The notes beneath the pieces were generated by a model. It saw only the letters and a list, made by a program, of their open reading frames with translations, ran no database searches and was not told the DNA's origin. A stretch of DNA of 64,000 nucleotides from sequence record PZ179883.1. One strand, written 5' to 3'. The position numbers and the translations under genes were made by a program. The DNA is from a phage. Of the stretch, positions 4,597 to 33,252 are shown piece by piece. Numbering within the stretch: position 1 is the stretch's first letter; the number at the start of each line of letters is the position of its first letter.

Positions 4597-5088
4597 ATGT
4601 TTGTAGATGATGTAACACGAGCGTTTGAATCAGGTGATTTTGCGCGACCTAACTTATTCCAAGTAGAAATTTCTTATCTTGGACAAAATTTTACGTTTCA
4701 ATGTAAAGCCACTGCTTTACCAGCTGGTATTGTAGAAAAAATTCCAGTCGGATTTATGAACCGTAAAATTAACGTAGCAGGCGATCGTACATTCGATGAC
4801 TGGACTGTTACAGTAATGAACGATGAAGCTCATGATGCTCGCCAGAAGTTCGTTGATTGGCAAAGCATTGCTGCGGGGCAAGGAAACGAAATTACTGGTG
4901 GAAAACCTGCAGAGTATAAAAAGAGCGCTATCGTTCGTCAATATGCTCGTGACGCTAAGACAGTAACAAAAGAAATTGAAATTAAAGGTCTGTGGCCTAC
5001 TAACGTGGGTGAACTTCAATTGGATTGGGATTCAAACAATGAAATCCAAACATTTGAAGTAACTCTTGCTCTCGATTATTGGGAATAA
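4597..5088 (+). CDS. 19: tail tube protein
   Basis: 163 aa, matches recalled T4 gp19. Confidence 0.97.
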   Translation: MFVDDVTRAFESGDFARPNLFQVEISYLGQNFTFQCKATALPAGIVEKIPVGFMNRKINVAGDRTFDDWTVTVMNDEAHDARQKFVDWQSIAAGQGNEITGGKPAEYKKSAIVRQYARDAKTVTKEIEIKGLWPTNVGELQLDWDSNNEIQTFEVTLALDYWE

Positions 5089-5093
5089 AATGA

Positions 5094-6745
<1,652 letters not shown>

Positions 6746-6985: not shown

Positions 6986-7410
6986 TGCTTCTGATCCCTG
7001 AAACTCATGAATTAGTTCTCGAGAATGTCGAAGCACTTATTCCTGAAGCACAGGGTCGCTTTGACGAATTGTCTTCTGCTTTAAATAAAGACGATATAAA
7101 TACAATTGTCGAGAATATGCTTGATGATGAAACTGATTTAGCGGTTGCATTAGCTTCTATTAATGAAAATATGCCGTTAAATGAATTTATCGTTAAACAT
7201 GTTTCTGCCCGTGGTGAAATTACTCGCACTAAAGATCGCAAAACCCGCGAACGTAATGCATTTCAAACTACCGGGTTGTCTAAAGCAAAACGTAGACAAA
7301 TTGCTCGTAAAGCTACCAAAACGAAGATTGCCAATCCAGCAGGTCAATCTCGTGCTCAGCGTAAGCGTAAAAAAGCTCTTAAACGCCGTAAAGCATTAGG
7401 ATTAAGCTAA
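6985..7410 (+). CDS. 68: prohead core protein
   Basis: 141 aa; TAATG overlap with gene 67. Confidence 0.93.
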
Positions 7411-8048
7411 TGAATGAACCCCAATTACTAATTGAAACTTGGGGTCAACCTGGCGAAATTATTGATGGTGTGCCAATGCTTGAATCCCACGATGGAAAAG
7501 ACTTAGGTTTAAAACCTGGTTTATACATCGAAGGAATATTCATGCAAGCAGAAGTCGTCAATAGAAATAAACGTCTTTATCCAAAACGCATATTAGAAAA
7601 AGCGGTAAAAGACTATATTAATGAGCAAGTTTTAACTAAACAAGCTCTCGGAGAATTAAATCATCCTCCACGCGCTAATGTTGACCCGATGCAAGCCGCT
7701 ATCATTATAGAAGATATGTGGTGGAAAGGAAATGACGTATACGGACGAGCTCGTGTTATTGAAGGTGACCATGGTCCTGGAGATAAATTAGCAGCTAATA
7801 TTCGTGCCGGATGGATTCCAGGAGTTTCTTCTCGTGGATTAGGTTCATTGACTGACACAAATAAAGGTTATCGTATCGTAAACGAAGGATTCAAATTAAC
7901 TGTAGGTGTTGATGCAGTATGGGGTCCAAGTGCTCCAGATGCATGGGTAACTCCTAAGGAAATTACCGAATCACAGACGGCGGAAGCCGATACAAGTGCC
8001 GATGACGCCTATATGGCTCTCGCAGAGGCCATGAAAAAAGCGTTATAA
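7410..8048 (+). CDS. 21: prohead core scaffold protein / maturation protease
   Basis: 212 aa, matches recalled T4 gp21. Confidence 0.96.
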   Translation: MNEPQLLIETWGQPGEIIDGVPMLESHDGKDLGLKPGLYIEGIFMQAEVVNRNKRLYPKRILEKAVKDYINEQVLTKQALGELNHPPRANVDPMQAAIIIEDMWWKGNDVYGRARVIEGDHGPGDKLAANIRAGWIPGVSSRGLGSLTDTNKGYRIVNEGFKLTVGVDAVWGPSAPDAWVTPKEITESQTAEADTSADDAYMALAEAMKKAL

Positions 8049-25005: not shown

Positions 25006-26100
25006 ATGGCAATTGTTAAAGAAATAACTGCTGATTTAATTAAAAAGTCCGGTGAGAAAATTTCAGCCGGACAGAGTACTAAATCAGAAGTAGCAACTAA
25101 AACATACACTGCCCAGTTTCCAACTGGGCGTGCTAGTGGTAATGACACTACAGGAGACTTCCAGGTAACAGATCTATATAAGAATGGATTATTATTTACT
25201 GCATACAATATGTCATCTAGGGATTCTGGAAGTCTTAGATCGATGAGATCTAACTACTCTTCTTCATCTTCGAGTATTTTACGTACAGCCAGAAACACTA
25301 TCAGTAATACAGTATCAAAACTGTCAAATGGATTAATATCAGATAATAATTCAGGAACAATAAGTAAAGCTCCTGTCGCAAACATTCTTTTACCGAGATC
25401 TAAATCTGACGTTGATACGTCGTCACATAGATTTAATGATGTTCAAGAAAGTCTTATCAGCAGAGGCGGAGGTACTGCTACTGGTGTGCTAAGTAATATT
25501 GCTTCAACTGCAGTATTTGGGGCACTGGAAAGTATAACACAAGGTATAATGGCTGATAATAATGAACAGATTTATACGACAGCCAGAAGTATGTATGGTG
25601 GTGCTGAGAATAGAACTAAAGTGTTTACATGGGATTTGACTCCACGTTCAACAGAAGATTTAATGGCTATTATTAATATCTATCAATATTTTAACTATTT
25701 TTCTTATGGTGAAACTGGCAAATCTCAATATGCTGCTGAAATAAAGGGGTATTTAGATGATTGGTATCGTTCTACGTTAATTGAACCTTTATCTCCGGAA
25801 GACGCAGCTAAAAATAAAACACTATTTGAGAAAATGACATCGAGTTTAACTAACGTTCTAGTAGTTTCAAACCCGACAATTTGGATGGTGAAAAACTTTG
25901 GTGCAACATCTAAGTTTGATGGAAAAACGGAAATATTTGGCCCATGCCAAATACAAAGCATCAGATTTGATAAAACACCTAATGGTAACTTTAACGGATT
26001 AGCTATTGCTCCAAACCTCCCTAGTACATTTACTCTTGAGATTACTATGAGAGAAATTATCACGTTAAACCGTGCTTCTTTATATGCGGGGACTTTTTAA
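25006..26100 (+). CDS. 48: baseplate tail-tube cap
   Basis: 364 aa, matches T4 gp48. Confidence 0.95.
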   Translation: MAIVKEITADLIKKSGEKISAGQSTKSEVATKTYTAQFPTGRASGNDTTGDFQVTDLYKNGLLFTAYNMSSRDSGSLRSMRSNYSSSSSSILRTARNTISNTVSKLSNGLISDNNSGTISKAPVANILLPRSKSDVDTSSHRFNDVQESLISRGGGTATGVLSNIASTAVFGALESITQGIMADNNEQIYTTARSMYGGAENRTKVFTWDLTPRSTEDLMAIINIYQYFNYFSYGETGKSQYAAEIKGYLDDWYRSTLIEPLSPEDAAKNKTLFEKMTSSLTNVLVVSNPTIWMVKNFGATSKFDGKTEIFGPCQIQSIRFDKTPNGNFNGLAIAPNLPSTFTLEITMREIITLNRASLYAGTF

Positions 26101-27065
26101 TGTATTCTTTAGAGGAATTTAATAATCAAGCAATAAACGCAGATTTCCAACGTAATAATATGTTTAGCTGCGTTTTTGCGACAACTCCATCAACTAAAAG
26201 CTCTTCGTTGATAAGTTCAATTAGCAACTTTTCTTATAATAACTTGGGTCTAAATTCAGATTGGTTAGGATTGACTCAAGGCGATATTAATCAGGGAATT
26301 ACCACGCTAATTACTGCTGGCACACAAAAACTGATAAGAAAATCAGGGGTTAGTAAATATCTTATTGGTGCCATGAGTCAACGTACAGTTCAAAGTTTAT
26401 TAGGCTCATTTACAGTTGGTACATATTTAATTGACTTCTTTAACATGGCATATAACTCATCTGGATTGATGATATACTCTGTAAAAATGCCAGAGAATAG
26501 ATTATCCTATGAAACTGACTGGAACTATAATTCTCCTAATATTCGTATAACTGGGAGAGAATTAGACCCTTTGGTTATTTCATTCAGAATGGATTCAGAA
26601 GCTTGTAACTATCGTGCAATGCAAGACTGGGTTAACGCTGTTCAAGACCCAGTAACTGGATTGCGTGCTTTGCCGCAAGATGTCGAGGCAGATATTCAGG
26701 TTAATCTTCATGCTCGTAATGGATTACCTCATACTGCTGTGATGTTCACCGGATGCATTCCAGTGTCAGTGAGCGCTCCTGAGTTATCATATGATGGAGA
26801 TAATCAAATAACTACATTTGATGTTACTTTTGCGTATAGAGTCATGCAGGCTGGAGCAGTTGATAGACAAGCTGCGCTTGAATGGCTTGAATCTGCTGCT
26901 ATAAATGGCATTCAAAGCGTTCTCGGAAATAGTGGAGGTGTTACTGGACTATCTAATTCGCTTTCACGACTTAGTAGATTAGGAGGAACTGCTGGAAGCA
27001 TTTCAAACATTAATACTATGACGGGAATTGTCAACTCGCAAAGTAAAATATTAGGAGCAATATAA
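26100..27065 (+). CDS. 54: baseplate tail-tube initiator
   Basis: 321 aa, matches T4 gp54. Confidence 0.95.
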   Translation: MYSLEEFNNQAINADFQRNNMFSCVFATTPSTKSSSLISSISNFSYNNLGLNSDWLGLTQGDINQGITTLITAGTQKLIRKSGVSKYLIGAMSQRTVQSLLGSFTVGTYLIDFFNMAYNSSGLMIYSVKMPENRLSYETDWNYNSPNIRITGRELDPLVISFRMDSEACNYRAMQDWVNAVQDPVTGLRALPQDVEADIQVNLHARNGLPHTAVMFTGCIPVSVSAPELSYDGDNQITTFDVTFAYRVMQAGAVDRQAALEWLESAAINGIQSVLGNSGGVTGLSNSLSRLSRLGGTAGSISNINTMTGIVNSQSKILGAI

Positions 27066-27069
27066 CAAT

Positions 27070-27097
27070 GGGGACCTTTCGGTCCCCATGTTTTTAT
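27070..27097 (+). terminator. terminator after gene 54
   Basis: GGGGACC-UUUC-GGUCCCC hairpin followed by a T-rich run. Confidence 0.75.
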
Positions 27098-27384
27098 TTA
27101 CGGAATGAAATAAAAGCAGCAACTGAAGCAACTAAACTGTCTTCAATATAAACTTCAATTTTTACCGGAGCTTCTGACTCAAATTTACCTGTTACTACAC
27201 CTTGGAAAATGCTTTCAGTCTGTTCTGGCTTTGAAAAATTTTCAGAAGGAAAAATTCCGAACTTTTTATCTGTTCCAAAAATTTTAATAAATTCATCGTA
27301 AACTGCTTCATTAAAAGCGTTATCAGCAGGAATAACGCCTTCAACTACAAGTTCTTGACCTAAAAAGCGCAAAGAAGATTTCAT
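27094..27384 (-). CDS. hypothetical protein downstream of the alt pair
   Basis: 96-aa ORF; SD GAGGA 8 nt upstream of ATG. Confidence 0.7.
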   Translation of the reverse strand: MKSSLRFLGQELVVEGVIPADNAFNEAVYDEFIKIFGTDKKFGIFPSENFSKPEQTESIFQGVVTGKFESEAPVKIEVYIEDSLVASVAAFISFRK

Positions 27385-27392
27385 TTTATGTT

Positions 27393-27445
27393 CCTCATGT
27401 TATGTCAGTAAGATTATTATAACACAACACGAGGGACTTGTAAAC
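27393..27445 (-). promoter_or_regulatory. early (sigma70-type) promoter with dyad symmetry, repeat copy 1
   Basis: Minus strand GTTTAC-17/18 nt-TATAAT; inverted repeat CCTCGTGTT/AACATGAGG flanks -10; 50 of 53 nt identical to 43043-43095. Confidence 0.6.
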
Positions 27446-29502
27446 TACATTTTGAACTTTTTAGACATTCCGTTGATATTAACCAAAGAAGCCAAGATTT
27501 GAGAAACTTCGTTTTCCTCTTCTTTTGATTCTTCTACAAGGAATTGGTTAAATCCAGTCATTGGACGAACTTCACCAGTTTCCATTAGATGGTCGCCATC
27601 ATATACCGATTCTTCTAATTGTTCAGAAGGAGGAACGATTGTGCCTTCGATTAGATACTTGTTATAAGCAGTTTCTTTCATCATGTACGTACTCACTTTA
27701 TTAATCTTCAGTAAAATTCCACGTGGTAGAATAACTTCAGCTTCTGACGGAAATCCTGATAAATGACCCGGAACGATAACTTTGATTCGCTCAGCTCCTT
27801 TAATTACCATACCCACGCTAGTTTCAGCATCTTCATTCGCATAAGCAGAGTGACTACCCATATGCATTAAATCTTCAGCATCAACTGAACCTTCTCCTTC
27901 ACCAGAAAATACTGCACCAGAATCATCTAGAGCCATATAGTTTTTACCATACTCACCGAAGATATTTGGTTTAAGCGATGTGGATACGAAGTTCTTGAAA
28001 TAGAACATTTTATTTTCAATATTATGACGTAAAGTTTTAAAGGTAACTTCTTGTCCACGGTAAAGCGTAGTTCCTGGAGGAAGAACTGATCCTTTGGCAA
28101 AGGCAGAATCCATTGTCTCGATGTGTTTAATAGCTCGTTCCATGTATTCTTCACGAGTAGAATCTGGTTTACCTAAAAGGAACGAGTTCATTTCAACATA
28201 TGAATCTGCGCAATAATCTTCAATTACATCAGACTCAGCCCGAGTTAATCCTTTTGGGGGTACTTCAGTACTTGCATATTCATACGCTTGAGAAGCAGAC
28301 TCATTAATCAATTTATACACGCCATTCATGACAAATTGAACAATAGCTACCTTTTCATCTGGCGTGGCTTTAGAACCTTTAACTAAATCATTGATAATTT
28401 TCTTAATAACATCAAAGCTATTAGAAATATTAATGTCAGCAAGATCGCTTAAAATTTTATCAGTTTTATAATCAAAAAATTCTTTATTCTTTAAATATTC
28501 TTGAGAACCTTGATATGTTATATCGCTCTGTAACTTGATAGATGGATCACGTAAACGTGCATGAGCCAATGCAATATGATTTCGGAAGCTTTCTAGTTCA
28601 TAATCGCTAGATTTAAAACGAGAAGCGCTTCTCATACCACCGATAGCTCCTTTGCTGAAGTTTGAACCAACCTGAATAACGCCAGAGTTCATTGGTCCTT
28701 CTGCTTTATATACCGGAACTTTAGATTCAAACTCTTGATATTTCTTAGCAGCGAAGCTATCACCCTGAAGTGAAGCATCGACAGTAGAATATTGAGCTTG
28801 TGCTGCTAATCGACGACTAATTTTAGTTTTCTGAATAACAGCTTGGTCCGTGCGCTTATCATTTTCTAAAGCAATAGAAGCAGCAACAGCAACAGCTTTA
28901 GGAACAGCATTACCTGTTTTAACATCTACATAAACATCACCAACCTTTGATTCAACTTTTGTGAATAACTCAGTTGAAATAGGAGGTACACCTGGAATGT
29001 CTTCTAAATTGGCATTTTTACGATAAACCATAATATATGCGTACTTTTTATCATAATCCCAGATTTCCTTTAAAAGAACATATCGACCTGCTCCTTTAGT
29101 ACGTACTAAACGGTCAGCAATAACTTGCATTTGACGAGCAGCGCCATTTGTTTTACTCTTTAGTACGCGGAATAAGCATGCATCAATTTTATACTGTTTC
29201 ATTGTTTGAAGAGCAGTATCAAAAACAGCGTTAATGACGCCAATTGGATTTCCACCCAAGTTTCTAAGTTTAACCAGTGATAATTTCTCGTTGACACCTA
29301 TCATTACGATATGCATCATTTTATCGCCCGGCTTAACGTTTTTATTTGTATCACCTCCAGAGGTGTATGTACAAAATCTAAATCCAGGAAGCACGCTTTC
29401 TTCGCCGGCTTGAATAGCAAAAATTTGAGGTATTTTATGCTTAGGATTTAAGTTAACAACCGGCGCCGAAGCGCCGTCAAATAATTCTGTAATAAGTTCC
29501 AT
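27445..29502 (-). CDS. Alt-like ADP-ribosyltransferase (second tandem paralog)
   Basis: 685 aa; N-terminus MELITELFD shared with Alt; conserved TLYRGQ, FVSTSL and EAEVILPRG motifs; central region divergent. Confidence 0.85.
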   Translation of the reverse strand: MELITELFDGASAPVVNLNPKHKIPQIFAIQAGEESVLPGFRFCTYTSGGDTNKNVKPGDKMMHIVMIGVNEKLSLVKLRNLGGNPIGVINAVFDTALQTMKQYKIDACLFRVLKSKTNGAARQMQVIADRLVRTKGAGRYVLLKEIWDYDKKYAYIMVYRKNANLEDIPGVPPISTELFTKVESKVGDVYVDVKTGNAVPKAVAVAASIALENDKRTDQAVIQKTKISRRLAAQAQYSTVDASLQGDSFAAKKYQEFESKVPVYKAEGPMNSGVIQVGSNFSKGAIGGMRSASRFKSSDYELESFRNHIALAHARLRDPSIKLQSDITYQGSQEYLKNKEFFDYKTDKILSDLADINISNSFDVIKKIINDLVKGSKATPDEKVAIVQFVMNGVYKLINESASQAYEYASTEVPPKGLTRAESDVIEDYCADSYVEMNSFLLGKPDSTREEYMERAIKHIETMDSAFAKGSVLPPGTTLYRGQEVTFKTLRHNIENKMFYFKNFVSTSLKPNIFGEYGKNYMALDDSGAVFSGEGEGSVDAEDLMHMGSHSAYANEDAETSVGMVIKGAERIKVIVPGHLSGFPSEAEVILPRGILLKINKVSTYMMKETAYNKYLIEGTIVPPSEQLEESVYDGDHLMETGEVRPMTGFNQFLVEESKEEENEVSQILASLVNINGMSKKFKM

Positions 29503-29505
29503 GAT

Positions 29506-31554
29506 TTATCCTTGAACGAACTTGTAAGGCATGTTTGTAATATCTATGCAAGACGCAATAATTCCAAGAGATGATTCTACTTTCTGTTTAACATTTGATG
29601 AAACAAATGATGCAAAGTCAACTCTATCTTCTATATCACCTGTCATTGTAACTACTTCGCCGGTTTCCATTAAACGGTCACCGTCATAAATTACTGATTC
29701 GGTGAGTTCTTCGGTGGTCATAACTTCAGCTTGAATAAGCTTGTTGTTAGTTTTGACTGTTCCATCATTGTAAGATGCATCAGTTATTTTATTAACTTTG
29801 ACCATTAATCCACGTGGCAAAATGACTTCCATTTCATTTGAAGGCGCTAAACTTCCACCGGGTAAAACAACATTGACTTTATCAGCCCCAGTAATAACCC
29901 ATCCAATTCCGACTAAATTATCGCTAGAATTAACAAGCCCTTCATCATTTTTATCGATAGAAATGTTTAGACGCTTTTCATCTGGTAAAACACCAACAGC
30001 TGAATCAGTCATCCAAGTACCAAAAATGTTTGGATATAATGATGTTGATACAAAATTTCTAAAATAAAAAACTCGATTTTTTACCATTGCTTCGTATATT
30101 GAAGGTAACATTCGTTGTGAACGATACAAAGTAATACCTTTTGGTAATCGTTCACCATTTTTAAAGGCTGAATCTAAATTATCAATAGCTTTTTCTATGT
30201 CAGATGCTGTCAAAATACTTGTACGCTCATCTGGATTATATAATCCCAAAAGAGCATTATTTATGTCTACATATCCTGAACCTACGTATTCACGAATTCC
30301 GCGTTTTTGTGCTGGTGTGTATTTAGATGAATCTTTATTTTCGACTATAGGATGTAATGACCATCCAGCTGTAAGAGCATATCCACGTAATTCTCTTCGA
30401 ATAATCTTTGTTTTTATTGCATTCCAAGAATTTTGTACTAACTCATTTGCAGCATCTTGGTTTAAATGCGAATGTTTGTTAATATTTCTTTCAAACCAAG
30501 CACCTTTATATTTTTCTAAAGTATCATCGACGATAGAAGCAATAGTTTCTAAAGTTTTTATTGAAGTAATAGATTCTTTTCGTAATTTTTCTAAAGCTTT
30601 ATTTTTTATTTCTGCATTAATAATGGATTCTTTATCTTCAGGAATTATAGAAGCTTCTCTGAATGCCATCCCAGCTGTAACACTGCTAAGAGCATTCTCT
30701 AGTGCAAATCCTGAAGTAGAAATTACCGTTAATTCATTAGAATCAGAAATTAAAGGCGCGTCCGCTGGTTTATTTAATTCTGCCGCTGAAGCCTCAAATT
30801 TTTGAAACATCGGTGTTTCAAATCTAGAAGATTCCAATGACTGACTTTGTGCAATTGCTCTACGGGAAATTTTAACTTTAACGATTACAGCTTGGTCAGA
30901 ACGTTTATCATTTTCTTGTGCAATAGATGCTGCAATTGCCTCATTTTTGGTTACTTGAGCTCCGGTATCTTTATTGATATAAACATCACCGACCTTCGAT
31001 TCAACTTTAGTAAAGAGCTCGGTACTAATTTCCGGAACTCCTGGAATGTCTTCTAGTGATACATTTTTGCGATGTATAAGAATATATGCATACTTTTTAT
31101 CATAATCCCAGAGTTCCTTAAGAAGGACGTATCTGCCACCTGAACGACTACGGATAAGTCTATCAGCAATAAGTTGAATTTGTCGAGCTTGACCAGCAGT
31201 TTTAGACTTAAGAATACGAAGCATGCAGGCATCAATTTTATACTGACGCATCGTCTGCATTGCAACAGTAAAAACTGAATTGATATAATTAATTGGGCTT
31301 GGACCGAGACCTTTCAATTTAGCAATTGAACCTTTAGCAGTTAATGTAAAAGGAACAATGTGCATCATTTTATCGCCCATCTTTAGATCACGGTTAGTAT
31401 CACCTCCAGATGTATAGGTACATAAACGAAAGCCTGGTTGTTCAATTGCGTCATCAACATGAACTGAAAAAATTTGCGGTATTTTCTTCTTTGGATTTAA
31501 GTTTGTAATCGGAAGAGTAGTATCTTCGTCAAATAATTCTGTAATGAGTTCCAT
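29506..31554 (-). CDS. alt: Alt ADP-ribosyltransferase (capsid-packaged)
   Basis: 682 aa from MELITELFD; matches recalled T4 Alt; TLYRSQ, FVSTSL and EMEVILPRG motifs. Confidence 0.93.
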   Translation of the reverse strand: MELITELFDEDTTLPITNLNPKKKIPQIFSVHVDDAIEQPGFRLCTYTSGGDTNRDLKMGDKMMHIVPFTLTAKGSIAKLKGLGPSPINYINSVFTVAMQTMRQYKIDACMLRILKSKTAGQARQIQLIADRLIRSRSGGRYVLLKELWDYDKKYAYILIHRKNVSLEDIPGVPEISTELFTKVESKVGDVYINKDTGAQVTKNEAIAASIAQENDKRSDQAVIVKVKISRRAIAQSQSLESSRFETPMFQKFEASAAELNKPADAPLISDSNELTVISTSGFALENALSSVTAGMAFREASIIPEDKESIINAEIKNKALEKLRKESITSIKTLETIASIVDDTLEKYKGAWFERNINKHSHLNQDAANELVQNSWNAIKTKIIRRELRGYALTAGWSLHPIVENKDSSKYTPAQKRGIREYVGSGYVDINNALLGLYNPDERTSILTASDIEKAIDNLDSAFKNGERLPKGITLYRSQRMLPSIYEAMVKNRVFYFRNFVSTSLYPNIFGTWMTDSAVGVLPDEKRLNISIDKNDEGLVNSSDNLVGIGWVITGADKVNVVLPGGSLAPSNEMEVILPRGLMVKVNKITDASYNDGTVKTNNKLIQAEVMTTEELTESVIYDGDRLMETGEVVTMTGDIEDRVDFASFVSSNVKQKVESSLGIIASCIDITNMPYKFVQG

Positions 31555-31577
31555 CATATCCTCTCTAGTGTTTATTC

Positions 31578-31585
31578 TATTTATA
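31578..31585 (-). promoter_or_regulatory. late promoter TATAAATA (minus strand) upstream of alt
   Basis: Exact TATAAATA on minus strand about 20 nt upstream of alt ATG. Confidence 0.65.
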
Positions 31586-31590
31586 AAATT

Positions 31591-31607
31591 AAAGGCCCGA
31601 AGGCCTT
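31591..31607 (-). terminator. hairpin AAAGGCC-UUCG-GGCCUUU downstream of gene 30 operon
   Basis: UUCG-loop hairpin on the minus strand followed by AAUUUUAU. Confidence 0.5.
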
Positions 31608-31795
31608 TAATAATCTAATGGTAAGAGAGTACGATATATTTCAAACTTTGGCCCTTTTTCATAGGCATCAAATGTTTCTGTAAATTTATTATAAGCATAT
31701 GCATCTACAAATTCGAGAATGACTTGTGATACAGAAGTAGAAACATCTCCACCTTCTTTTTGAGCTATAACAATTGTTTCTAAGTAAGCTTTCAT
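31607..31795 (-). CDS. hypothetical protein between gene 30 and alt
   Basis: 62-aa ORF overlapping gene 30 stop by 4 nt. Confidence 0.6.
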   Translation of the reverse strand: MKAYLETIVIAQKEGGDVSTSVSQVILEFVDAYAYNKFTETFDAYEKGPKFEIYRTLLPLDY

Positions 31796-33252
31796 AGACC
31801 AGTTACCTCATGAAAATCACCAAATACATCCTCGAATGTATTAGCTTTAGTTTTATCTTCACGTAAACGAATCGCAATCGGAAGAAATAATTTAACGTAA
31901 TCAGTGCGGCCATCAGATTTTAACCAACCGTTGCATTCGCACTCTAGAATTTTTCCAATATAATAATTTTGGTTTTCCATAATGCGAGTACGGTCAAGTT
32001 CATGTGATTTTACACCAGCTTTATCTTTTAAACCTGAACCAGCATTTACCTTAATTTTTCCACACTCTGATTCAAGAATAAATCCACCTGCTTTAGTAGG
32101 GTCTTTACGGTGAGGATAAATTCCTACAATTTTTAAATCAACATCAATTACTTCTTTAAATTTATAGAGATTTTTTGAACGAGCATTTTCCCACAATCCA
32201 TCGGTATTTTTGAGAATAATACCTTCAAGACCTCGGTCAATATATTTTTTATAAATTACCTTAGCTTCATCTAGGTTATTTACTACCTGGTTTTCAATTA
32301 AAATTACTTTATCATATCCTGATGTCATTTGTTCTAGTTTAGAAAAACGTACATCATATTTTAAACGAAACGCCGGAAGACCGTATATTTCTACCAACGG
32401 GACATAATCCCAGACCTGAAACTTCATACATTTGGCTTCTTTTTCTGAAATAGTTCCCTTTAAAGATTTATTGGCGATTCCATTAGAAGCAGTACGAGAT
32501 TCAGCTACTTCAGCAAACTCTTTAACTTTACTATTTTCAGGAGAGTCAAAAAGAAAATCTAGGCCTTCTGGCTCCTTTTCAACTTGCTCATGGTATACCA
32601 ATTCGCCATCAATTAACACACCTTCTGGATGAATCTGACGGACTTCAGCAGTCATTTTGATTAACTCTTCCTTAAGAAGATCTAATCCTAGATATTCATT
32701 GCCAGCTCGTGATAAAAGACGAACATCATCTAATTCATCACCTCGGACTTCAGCAAAACACCGAGCTCCATCTGCTTTTAACTGCGCAAAAGCTGGAAAC
32801 TTGATATTCTTACTAATGCCTTTTTCATCATAAGAACTTGCCAGCATTTGAGGTTGTTCAGGAATTAAACCTGGCCAAACTTTGTTTGCAATAGATACTG
32901 AAGCACCACATTCAAGGTCTCGCATCATAACTCGACGCAAAACTTCAACATCATCCTTTTTACCATCGGTGATATACCCGATTAATTCCTCAATTGCTGC
33001 ATTTCCAGTCAATTTCCGAGTAGCTAACGTGAATTCAATGAAGTCAAGCATATCGGTAATAGTCAACATTCCAAAACTCTGGGTAGCAATACCAGGTTTA
33101 GGCCATTTCTTGATATAATACTGTAACCCACGAGAATAAGTCAGACGATATACTCGTTTAAGCAATTCATTATCTTTATTCTTTTCAAGAATTGCTTGCT
33201 TCTGCTTAGTTGATCCAATAGATGCTATTTCATTCAGAATTTTAAGAATCAT
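31792..33252 (-). CDS. 30: ATP-dependent DNA ligase
   Basis: 486 aa; KADGAR adenylation motif; matches T4 ligase. Confidence 0.97.
   Translation of the reverse strand: MILKILNEIASIGSTKQKQAILEKNKDNELLKRVYRLTYSRGLQYYIKKWPKPGIATQSFGMLTITDMLDFIEFTLATRKLTGNAAIEELIGYITDGKKDDVEVLRRVMMRDLECGASVSIANKVWPGLIPEQPQMLASSYDEKGISKNIKFPAFAQLKADGARCFAEVRGDELDDVRLLSRAGNEYLGLDLLKEELIKMTAEVRQIHPEGVLIDGELVYHEQVEKEPEGLDFLFDSPENSKVKEFAEVAESRTASNGIANKSLKGTISEKEAKCMKFQVWDYVPLVEIYGLPAFRLKYDVRFSKLEQMTSGYDKVILIENQVVNNLDEAKVIYKKYIDRGLEGIILKNTDGLWENARSKNLYKFKEVIDVDLKIVGIYPHRKDPTKAGGFILESECGKIKVNAGSGLKDKAGVKSHELDRTRIMENQNYYIGKILECECNGWLKSDGRTDYVKLFLPIAIRLREDKTKANTFEDVFGDFHEVTGL

Follow-up and report, generated by a model that had tools for sequence, protein, structure and literature searches.

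Does a T-even phage with two full-length Alt-family genes in tandem make and inject two working ADP-ribosyltransferases (ARTs), or is the second gene a spare copy of the first? The question is raised by the alt region of sequence record PZ179883.1, from which a stretch of 64,000 nucleotides (nt), referred to here as the window, was analyzed. The window comes from a T4-like phage (Tequatrovirus), and the order of genes in its alt region matches the T4 map. Two long open reading frames (ORFs) lie on the minus strand of this region, at 29506..31557 (683 amino acids (aa), beginning MMELITE) and at 27445..29502 (685 aa, beginning MELITE). The products of the upstream and the downstream gene are referred to as Alt1 (slot 1) and Alt2 (slot 2), respectively, and all features of the two genes given below are on the minus strand.

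The explanation that we consider likely is that both proteins are functional arginine ADP-ribosyltransferases which are expressed late, processed by the gp21 prohead protease and injected from the capsid, and which probably have different targets. Both genes would be transcribed from one late promoter at 31578-31585, and translation of Alt2 would use a ribosome-binding site of its own and begin 3 nt past the Alt1 stop codon. Each protein would consist, in order, of a six-residue propeptide ending in I-T-E, a basic N-terminal domain (N-domain) of about 230 aa, a variable effector part and, after an L-x-E site, an acidic C-terminal propeptide. The effector part would combine a helical region with an R-S-E ART domain carrying the arginine-type E-x-E motif. 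By analogy with T4 Alt, both proteins would enter the prohead core, be trimmed at both ends by gp21 and be injected with the DNA, after which the enzymes would ADP-ribosylate host proteins. Alt2, coming from a separate and old effector lineage, would most likely modify a different set of host targets from that of Alt1.

Gene structure, late promoter and catalytic domains

The upstream ORF opens with ATGATG. Since T4 alt encodes 682 aa starting with MELITE, the second ATG (31554) is the likely start of the upstream gene, which then spans 29506..31554, with the ORF extending to the earlier ATG at 31557. Its product is 98.4% identical to T4 Alt, which identifies the gene as the T4 alt ortholog, and it matches the Pfam family PF03496 (ADPrib_exo_Tox) with an expectation value (E) of 3e-36 and 125 bits. 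The Alt2 gene (27445..29502) is also full length, and its product matches PF03496 with E = 7e-20 and 71.6 bits, where the cut-off is 23.4 bits. The phrog_802 family of Alt-like ADP-ribosyltransferases matches both proteins end to end, over residues 1-681 of Alt1 and 1-685 of Alt2 (E = 3e-254 for Alt2). Given coding ORFs of 2 kb and family matches of this strength, chance is not an issue. The first-pass annotation of the window had described two tandem full-length Alt genes 3 nt apart on the minus strand, and the ORFs and the Pfam and phrog_802 matches confirm this description. The three nucleotides (atc) separate the TAA of the upstream gene from the ATG of the second, and an AAGGA ribosome-binding site for the second gene sits within the last codons of the upstream gene. 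The two proteins are 42-45% identical overall (E = 9e-157). The families phrog_23015 and phrog_15247 match Alt2 better than Alt1. In addition, homologs of Alt2, one of them 98% identical, carry a recorded match to PF26846 (Tevenvirinae_ADPRT), to which the local Pfam scan of the window gave no match; NCBIfam gave no family match for Alt1 or Alt2. A 202-aa antisense ORF (30197-30805, plus strand) lies within the upstream alt gene and is probably a by-product of sequence composition.

The T4-type late promoter TATAAATA is found upstream of both alt genes (31578-31585) as an exact match to the consensus. Between 20804 and 37096 the minus strand holds no other exact copy, in agreement with the earlier claim that a single late promoter stands ahead of the pair. 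In the whole window the exact sequence occurs 18 times where 8.6 copies are expected, a count that 0 shuffles reached, and most copies share the strand of adjacent late structural genes, as expected in the T4 late-gene region. Sites with one mismatch number 194 against 186 expected, in line with chance. A separate late promoter for the Alt2 gene was looked for and rejected, as no such site lies within 300 nt upstream of it. The terminator pattern scan called no terminator between the two alt genes. The arrangement of these signals suggests that the one late promoter serves both alt genes, which would be co-transcribed. T4 alt is expressed late at both the RNA and the protein level (PMC9697503).

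Both proteins contain a complete R-S-E catalytic set. In Alt1 the set consists of R478 (in LYRSQ), S503-T504-S505 (in FVSTSL) and E574 and E576 (in EMEVIL). In Alt2 it consists of R482 (in LYRGQ; 28059-28057), S507-T508-S509 (in FVSTSL) and E587 and E589 (in EAEVIL; 27744-27736). In an alignment of 20 homologs from both lineages and several genera, the arginine, both serines and both glutamates are invariant and the threonine is nearly so. In Alt1, LYR and ExE line up with their counterparts in the solved toxin CDTa, which was a marginal match to Alt1 in a sequence search of solved structures; the same search returned none for Alt2. The AlphaFold (AF2) model of Alt2, with a mean predicted local distance difference test score (pLDDT) of 72 and about 75-88 in the ART core, matches the solved R-S-E ARTs Vis, C3, CDTa, iota Ia, VIP2, C2-I and Certhrax. 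The best structural match is Vis (E = 6e-7, template modelling (TM) score on the target 0.64). The suggestion made from the letters of the sequence that both genes keep the R/STS/ExE pattern thus holds up on alignment, and the Alt2 model agrees with it.

Among R-S-E ARTs, the E-x-E form, as opposed to Q-x-E, is the arginine-specific type, and the motif suggests arginine specificity for both Alt1 and Alt2. T4 Alt, an NAD:arginine ADP-ribosyltransferase packaged in the head, ADP-ribosylates Arg265 of the alpha subunit of RNA polymerase, and by analogy the same modification by Alt1 of the window is plausible. The clostridial and Bacillus toxins named above (C3, iota Ia, CDTa, C2-I, VIP2, Vis and Certhrax) have the ART fold and the Arg/S-T-S/E-x-E residues in common with the Alt proteins. 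However, these toxins are 14-20% identical to them, lack the Alt N-domain and propeptides, and are delivered by secretion or through a binary pore. ModA and ModB of T4 have been grouped with Alt in the Alt/VIP2 R-S-E clade (PMC5512222). Unlike Alt, they are about 200 aa long, lack the N-domain and propeptides, are encoded elsewhere and are not injected from the head (PMC5512222).

The similarity between Alt1 and Alt2 differs by region, with 68% identity over residues 1-238, 35-41% in the ART domain and 7-25% in the centre, where the value varies with the alignment used. These values bear out the pattern first reported for the pair, which was a similar N-terminal region of about 230 residues, a diverged centre and a moderately diverged ART domain. 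In Alt1, the N-domain (aa 7-238; 30841..31536) is followed by an effector cassette of centre and ART domain (aa 239-619; 29698..30840), which holds R478, S503-T504-S505 and E574/E576. In Alt2, the N-domain (aa 7-238; 28789..29484; AF2 pLDDT 84.6) is followed by a central helical region (aa 239-425; 28228..28788) and the ART domain (aa 426-631; 27610..28227), which holds the Alt2 catalytic residues. The central region of Alt2 is predicted to be all-helical, is specific to the Alt2 lineage and is proposed to recognize targets. An exhaustive search with this region found 0 matches among 1.84 billion representatives, a weak negative, as the cluster representatives may be other Alt types. The loop before ExE also differs, with F584 in Alt2 and a proline in Alt1. 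The residue three positions before the first glutamate of E-x-E is F or Y in the Alt2 lineage and P, Q, I, H or M in the Alt1 lineage. As a lead, we take this position to be that of the aromatic residue of the substrate-recognition (ARTT) loop in C3-like toxins. With T4 Alt, Alt2 has in common MELITE, the N-domain (68%), the ART domain with R/STS/ExE and a C-terminal propeptide after an L-x-E site. It differs in the centre (7-25%) and the ART domain (35-41%), in F584, and in the acidic insert separating STS from ExE, which is longer in Alt2. Because the recognition loop and the central region are different, Alt2 most likely has different host targets.

Distribution of Alt2 and exchange of effector modules

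A megablast search with the Alt2 gene matched 498 phage records, of which 402 carry at least 80% of it, including T2, T6, RB10, RB51 and AR1. The pair is commonly annotated as 'Alt-like RNA polymerase ADP-ribosyltransferase (x2)'. In T2, T6 and RB51 the second gene is at the identical place, 3 nt after the first, and these second genes (BBC14817, YP_010067344 and RB51ORF198, respectively) are orthologs of Alt2, with 94-95.5% nucleotide and about 98% amino acid identity. The combination found in the window, T4-type Alt with Alt2, is present in about 141 records. About one-sixth of the records in a spread listing of the Alt2 matches, T4 included, align only over the first 348 nt. This stretch of about 348 nt is approximately 93-94% identical to the T4 remnant alt.-1/alt.-2 (5066-5451 in the T4 stretch compared, against 27464-29520 of the window), whose reading frame is broken into two small ORFs by the loss of 1 nt from an A-run. 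In addition, T4 lacks about 1.69 kb between short CTAAAnAGT repeats, so that the sequence at window position ~29155 runs directly into that at ~27464. Judged by this comparison, alt.-1/alt.-2 is what remains of a full-length Alt2 gene, consistent with the better match of phrog_23015 and phrog_15247 to Alt2, in spite of its annotation as an old duplicate of the initial part of alt. Phage sutha retains only the last ~120 nt of Alt2. The T4-type remnant of the 5' end and the sutha-type remnant of the 3' end indicate that Alt2 has been lost at least two times independently. The first-pass annotation had wondered about a full-length upstream paralog in T4; the extra full-length gene relative to T4 is instead the downstream copy.

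The tandem full-length alt pair is a standard T-even layout and is already known. Nolan et al. (2006) described T4 alt.-1/alt.-2, an RB49 ORF and 44RR ORFs as paralogous alt duplications, one of them full-length (PMC1524935). A 2026 paper reported that a Tequatrovirus encodes a paralogous pair of Alt-like proteins with 43% identity, and it speculated on divergent targets (PMC13600099). It had been allowed at the outset that the arrangement might prove both standard and already characterized. It is the normal layout in Tequatrovirus and carries annotation in RefSeq and in hundreds of genomes, T2, T6 and RB51 among them, but a literature search found no functional or proteomic study of Alt2 and no usable virion proteome of a phage with both copies; a paper on fPS phages gives nothing on the two genes, and one on injected T-even proteins (PMC12373910) does not deal with Alt.

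The trees of the individual domains conflict. The N-domains cluster by genus, with 68% identity between Alt1 and Alt2, 67% between the two Dhakavirus copies and 42-47% between genera. The central and ART parts form two lineages. The Dhakavirus phages IME341 and JS10 carry a tandem full-length Alt pair at the same genomic position, and beyond the genus Alt2 has its closest relative in their downstream copy. Alt2 clusters with this copy, at 57-58% identity in the ART domain and 45-46% in the centre, as compared with 35% in the ART domain against Alt1; the Dhakavirus N-domains are 42-47% identical to those of Tequatrovirus. Alt1 clusters with copies from Dhakavirus, Mosigvirus and Karamvirus that are either upstream or single. 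Between Alt1 and Alt2 the synonymous sites are saturated in every region, with a synonymous divergence (dS) of 1.1-1.6. By these sequence measures the paralog lineages are old. Recent gene conversion was considered for the N-terminal 238 residues and excluded, because their dS of 1.41 is as saturated as that of the other regions; the longest exact stretch shared there is 22 nt. The similarity of the two N-termini is therefore due to constraint, with a ratio of nonsynonymous (dN) to synonymous divergence (dN/dS) of 0.20. Duplication followed by divergence, as originally proposed for this pair, is too simple, in that the N-domains group by genus whereas the central and ART parts belong to two old lineages and have been exchanged as modules.

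This exchange is visible in slot 1. The upstream allele of T2, T6, RB51 and F25 is 695-697 aa long, and its N-domain and C-terminal propeptide are essentially identical to those of the window (dS 0.06-0.15). For example, the N-domain of Alt1, a genus-specific constant module, is 100% identical to those of the upstream alleles of T6, F25 and sutha despite their differing effector parts (dS 0.12 against T6). Residues ~239-625 of the T6-type upstream allele are highly diverged, with dS of about 1 or more and dN of 0.26-0.65. Compared with T4-type Alt, the slot 1 protein of T2, T6 and RB51 is a different, 697-aa allele with 33-37% identity in the centre and 65-66% in the ART domain. Along the locus, the window and T6 share at least 94% of nucleotides down to ~30860, 42-80% from there to ~29670, and 90-100% beyond that through all of Alt2. 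The T4-type cassette occupies slot 1 in 175 records and the T6-type cassette in 331. The ART domain of the T6-type allele is 94% identical to that of the Dhakavirus upstream copy, whereas the N-domains are 47% identical. Thus, effector modules move between genera onto resident N-domains.

Other variants of the locus were also found. Some metagenome contigs carry, instead of the pair, a single chimeric gene (5001-7055 in L010, 5001-7061 in L011 and 5001-7061 in L012), which begins as an Alt1-type gene and continues, after one clean switch, as Alt2. Three breakpoints were found, at codons ~47-52, ~181-185 and ~218-222, each in an identical stretch of 11-14 nt. In the two contigs long enough to show it, the chimeric gene lies between alt.1 and alt.-3. 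Collapse during assembly was considered as an origin of the chimeras, but the shared stretches of 11-14 nt argue against it, because an assembly graph built at k=31 or k=99 would not join the copies over so short a length. The chimeras are probably products of unequal crossover between tandem copies, in a layout that is unconfirmed and was not seen among the best isolate genomes. In addition, short ART-only paralogs lie beside alt in RB49 (p183, 274 aa, 5052-5876) and in Aeromonas phage avDM14 (294 aa, 1131-2015), with coordinates given in the stretches compared. Since these paralogs lack the N-domain, they are presumably not targeted to the capsid.

The N-domain itself was compared with a library of predicted viral structures, using the Alt2 domain. 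It matches the Alt proteins of many genera and, more weakly (TM 0.4-0.55, E 1e-4 to 1e-10), large uncharacterized proteins of unrelated myoviruses, some of which bear zeta-toxin, deaminase or ParB/Srx domains. No close solved relative was found, only a weak GNAT-like similarity (Z at most 6.8). These matches of models suggest that the N-domain may be a portable capsid-delivery module.

A wider reading of the locus is offered tentatively, as a possibility that falls somewhat short of being probable. In it, alt would be a polymorphic two-slot system of injected effectors, in which the N-domain and C-terminal propeptide are constant and the centre and ART domain are swapped, and Alt2 would be the second effector lineage with host targets of its own. 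The constant parts would serve delivery and double as recombination arms, the targets of Alt2 would possibly be defence-related, and the N-domain fold may, as its model matches indicate, be a general capsid-delivery adaptor.

A related alternative is that Alt2 is packaged and injected but acts mainly in counter-defence, or on a target other than RNA polymerase, such as a toxin, a nucleic acid or a defence protein found in particular strains. Such a role would explain why the presence of Alt2 varies between phages, and patchy presence with cassette exchange between genera is typical of arms-race genes. The recognition loop and central region of Alt2 are also unlike those of Alt1. In addition, T4 Alt already targets the toxin MazF, according to the account in PMC9697503 of Alawneh (2016), and other capsid-injected T-even proteins are anti-restriction factors (PMC12373910). 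However, the E-x-E motif points to protein arginine, as in Alt1, and is silent on which protein is modified, and this alternative overlaps the explanation of two injected arginine ARTs and differs from it only in the class of target. As a separate account, we regard it as unlikely.

Prohead processing, packaging and selection

T4 Alt is cut by gp21 at ITE-6 and LTE-619, as determined by mass spectrometry (PMC5694885; also PMC9026906). The cut at LTE-619 takes off 63 C-terminal residues and leaves a mature protein of 68.2 kDa (PMC5694885). Both gp21 motifs were tested and were found at aligned positions in Alt1 and Alt2. In Alt1, the N-terminal propeptide MELITE with its ITE-6 site (31537..31554) has the same sequence as in T4, and an acidic C-terminal propeptide (aa 620-682; 29509..29697) follows LTE-619, where the ELTE|S motif is conserved. 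The computed mass of mature Alt1 (residues 7-619) is 68.2 kDa, equal to the published T4 value. In Alt2, the N-terminal propeptide MELITE (29485..29502) is identical to those of Alt1 and T4 and is predicted to be cleaved in the same way. The position aligned with LTE-619 reads L629-E630-E631 in Alt2 and is followed by S-V-YDGD..ETGE and a predicted acidic C-terminal propeptide (aa 632-685; 27448..27609). Mature Alt2 is predicted to comprise residues 7-631 (69.1 kDa). Thus, in addition to the I-T-E site in MELITELFD that the first-pass annotation had recognized in both proteins, a second, aligned L-x-E site is present. E6 and E631 are invariant in 20 of 20 homologs, and the S-x-YDGD..ETGE context after the site is invariant or nearly so. 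The tails after the site are acidic, with isoelectric points (pI) of 4.2-4.6, and that of Alt2 is modelled at low confidence; the N-domains are basic (pI 9.5 in Alt1 and 9.7 in Alt2). The N-terminal domain of Alt1 is proposed to target the protein into the capsid. The protease predicted to process both proteins in trans, gp21, is encoded in the same window (7410..8048, plus strand; Peptidase_S77, E = 1.5e-111), beside the genes for the gp22 scaffold, gp23 and the portal. There are good grounds, by analogy with T4 Alt, for expecting that Alt2 would be packaged, cleaved and injected.

Several points weigh against the explanation of two working injected enzymes. First, we infer the presence of Alt2 in the virion, its cleavage and its activity, as we do the role of the N-domain in packaging. 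Secondly, [LI]-x-E motifs are common, with 7-8 in each protein, and the motif alone does not prove cleavage. Third, a short propeptide alone suffices for the capsid targeting of T4 internal proteins (PMC9026906). Fourth, the Alt2 gene does not have a promoter of its own, and its expression relies on read-through and its own ribosome-binding site. Lastly, the independent losses of Alt2 mean that it is dispensable on some hosts.

The first of these points leads to an alternative in which Alt2 is an active late ART that is not packaged and acts in the producing cell on host or phage proteins, like ModA and ModB. Packaging of Alt2 is deduced by analogy, and the ART-only genes of RB49 (p183, 274 aa) and of the Aeromonas phage (294 aa) suggest that unpackaged ARTs occur at the locus. 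However, Alt2 retains the full architecture of the packaged type, including a MELITE identical to that of Alt1 and the C-terminal L-x-E site with S-x-YDGD..ETGE, and its N-domain is strongly constrained among orthologs (dN/dS 0.01-0.03). An enzyme acting only inside the cell has no evident reason to retain the propeptides, the constraint on the N-domain and the L-x-E site, and we consider this alternative quite unlikely.

Selection on Alt2 was measured against the T6, T2 and RB51 orthologs, which gave dS of 0.18-0.27, dN of 0.009-0.015 and dN/dS of 0.04-0.07. By region, dN/dS is 0.01-0.03 in the N-domain, 0.07-0.15 in the centre and 0.04-0.06 in the ART domain. Strong constraint across all regions of Alt2 is the signature of a working protein. 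That Alt2 is a redundant or decaying duplicate without a role of its own, kept merely by sitting in the alt late transcript, is very unlikely: it has repeatedly been lost or truncated at no obvious cost (to the first 348 nt in the T4 type and to the last ~120 nt in sutha) and T4 grows well without it, but all domains are under purifying selection (dN/dS 0.04-0.07), the frame is intact in 402 records, the catalytic and cleavage residues are invariant, and the Dhakavirus homolog in the same slot (ART 57-58%) indicates that the lineage has been kept since before the genera split.

Neighbouring genes and significance of the second gene

The alt region is flanked by gp48 (25006-26100) and gp54 (26100-27065) on the plus strand and by the gene for DNA ligase gp30 (31792-33252) on the minus strand. 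The pair in the window shares with T4 alt the position between ligase/alt.1 and alt.-3/gp54 and would likewise form a late operon. A terminator-like hairpin, AAAGGCCTTCGGGCCTTT (31591..31608, minus strand), was read from the sequence just upstream of the alt late promoter, where it overlaps the alt.1 stop codon. It was missed by the terminator pattern scan because its T-run is interrupted. The terminator upstream of alt has been described as conserved (PMC1524935). On the other side of the pair, alt.-3 (27094..27384, minus strand) encodes a DUF5498 protein (PF17602, E = 1e-64), which is not an ART. Between the Alt2 stop codon and alt.-3 lies an early-type promoter, GTTTACA-17-TATAAT with TG (27416..27444, minus strand), with 11 of 12 consensus matches, and a bidirectional terminator is found beyond alt.-3 at 27068-27089. 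Since alt.-3 has its own near-consensus early-type promoter, it is a separate transcription unit, of another temporal class than the alt genes. Mutations that extend the C-terminus of alt.-3 reportedly allow T4 to escape the CmdTAC defence (preprint 10.1101/2024.02.24.581662). No tRNA genes were found in the whole window.

What this analysis adds to the known tandem arrangement is the organization of the locus into two slots with swappable effector modules, with a constant N-domain and C-terminal propeptide and with exchange between genera. The model phage T4 is the exception, as it keeps only the wreck of the second gene. The question of what Alt2 targets has gone unasked, in large part owing to this loss. 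If the two-slot reading is true, the system has been only partly covered by decades of Alt research, for the same reason. The residual question is therefore the target of an injected-type enzyme whose strong conservation extends across T2, T6 and hundreds of phages that are candidates for therapy. T2 and T6 are genetically tractable, so this question is directly testable. In addition, the exchange of cassettes gives a rationale for viewing the Alt proteins as determinants of host range or counter-defence.

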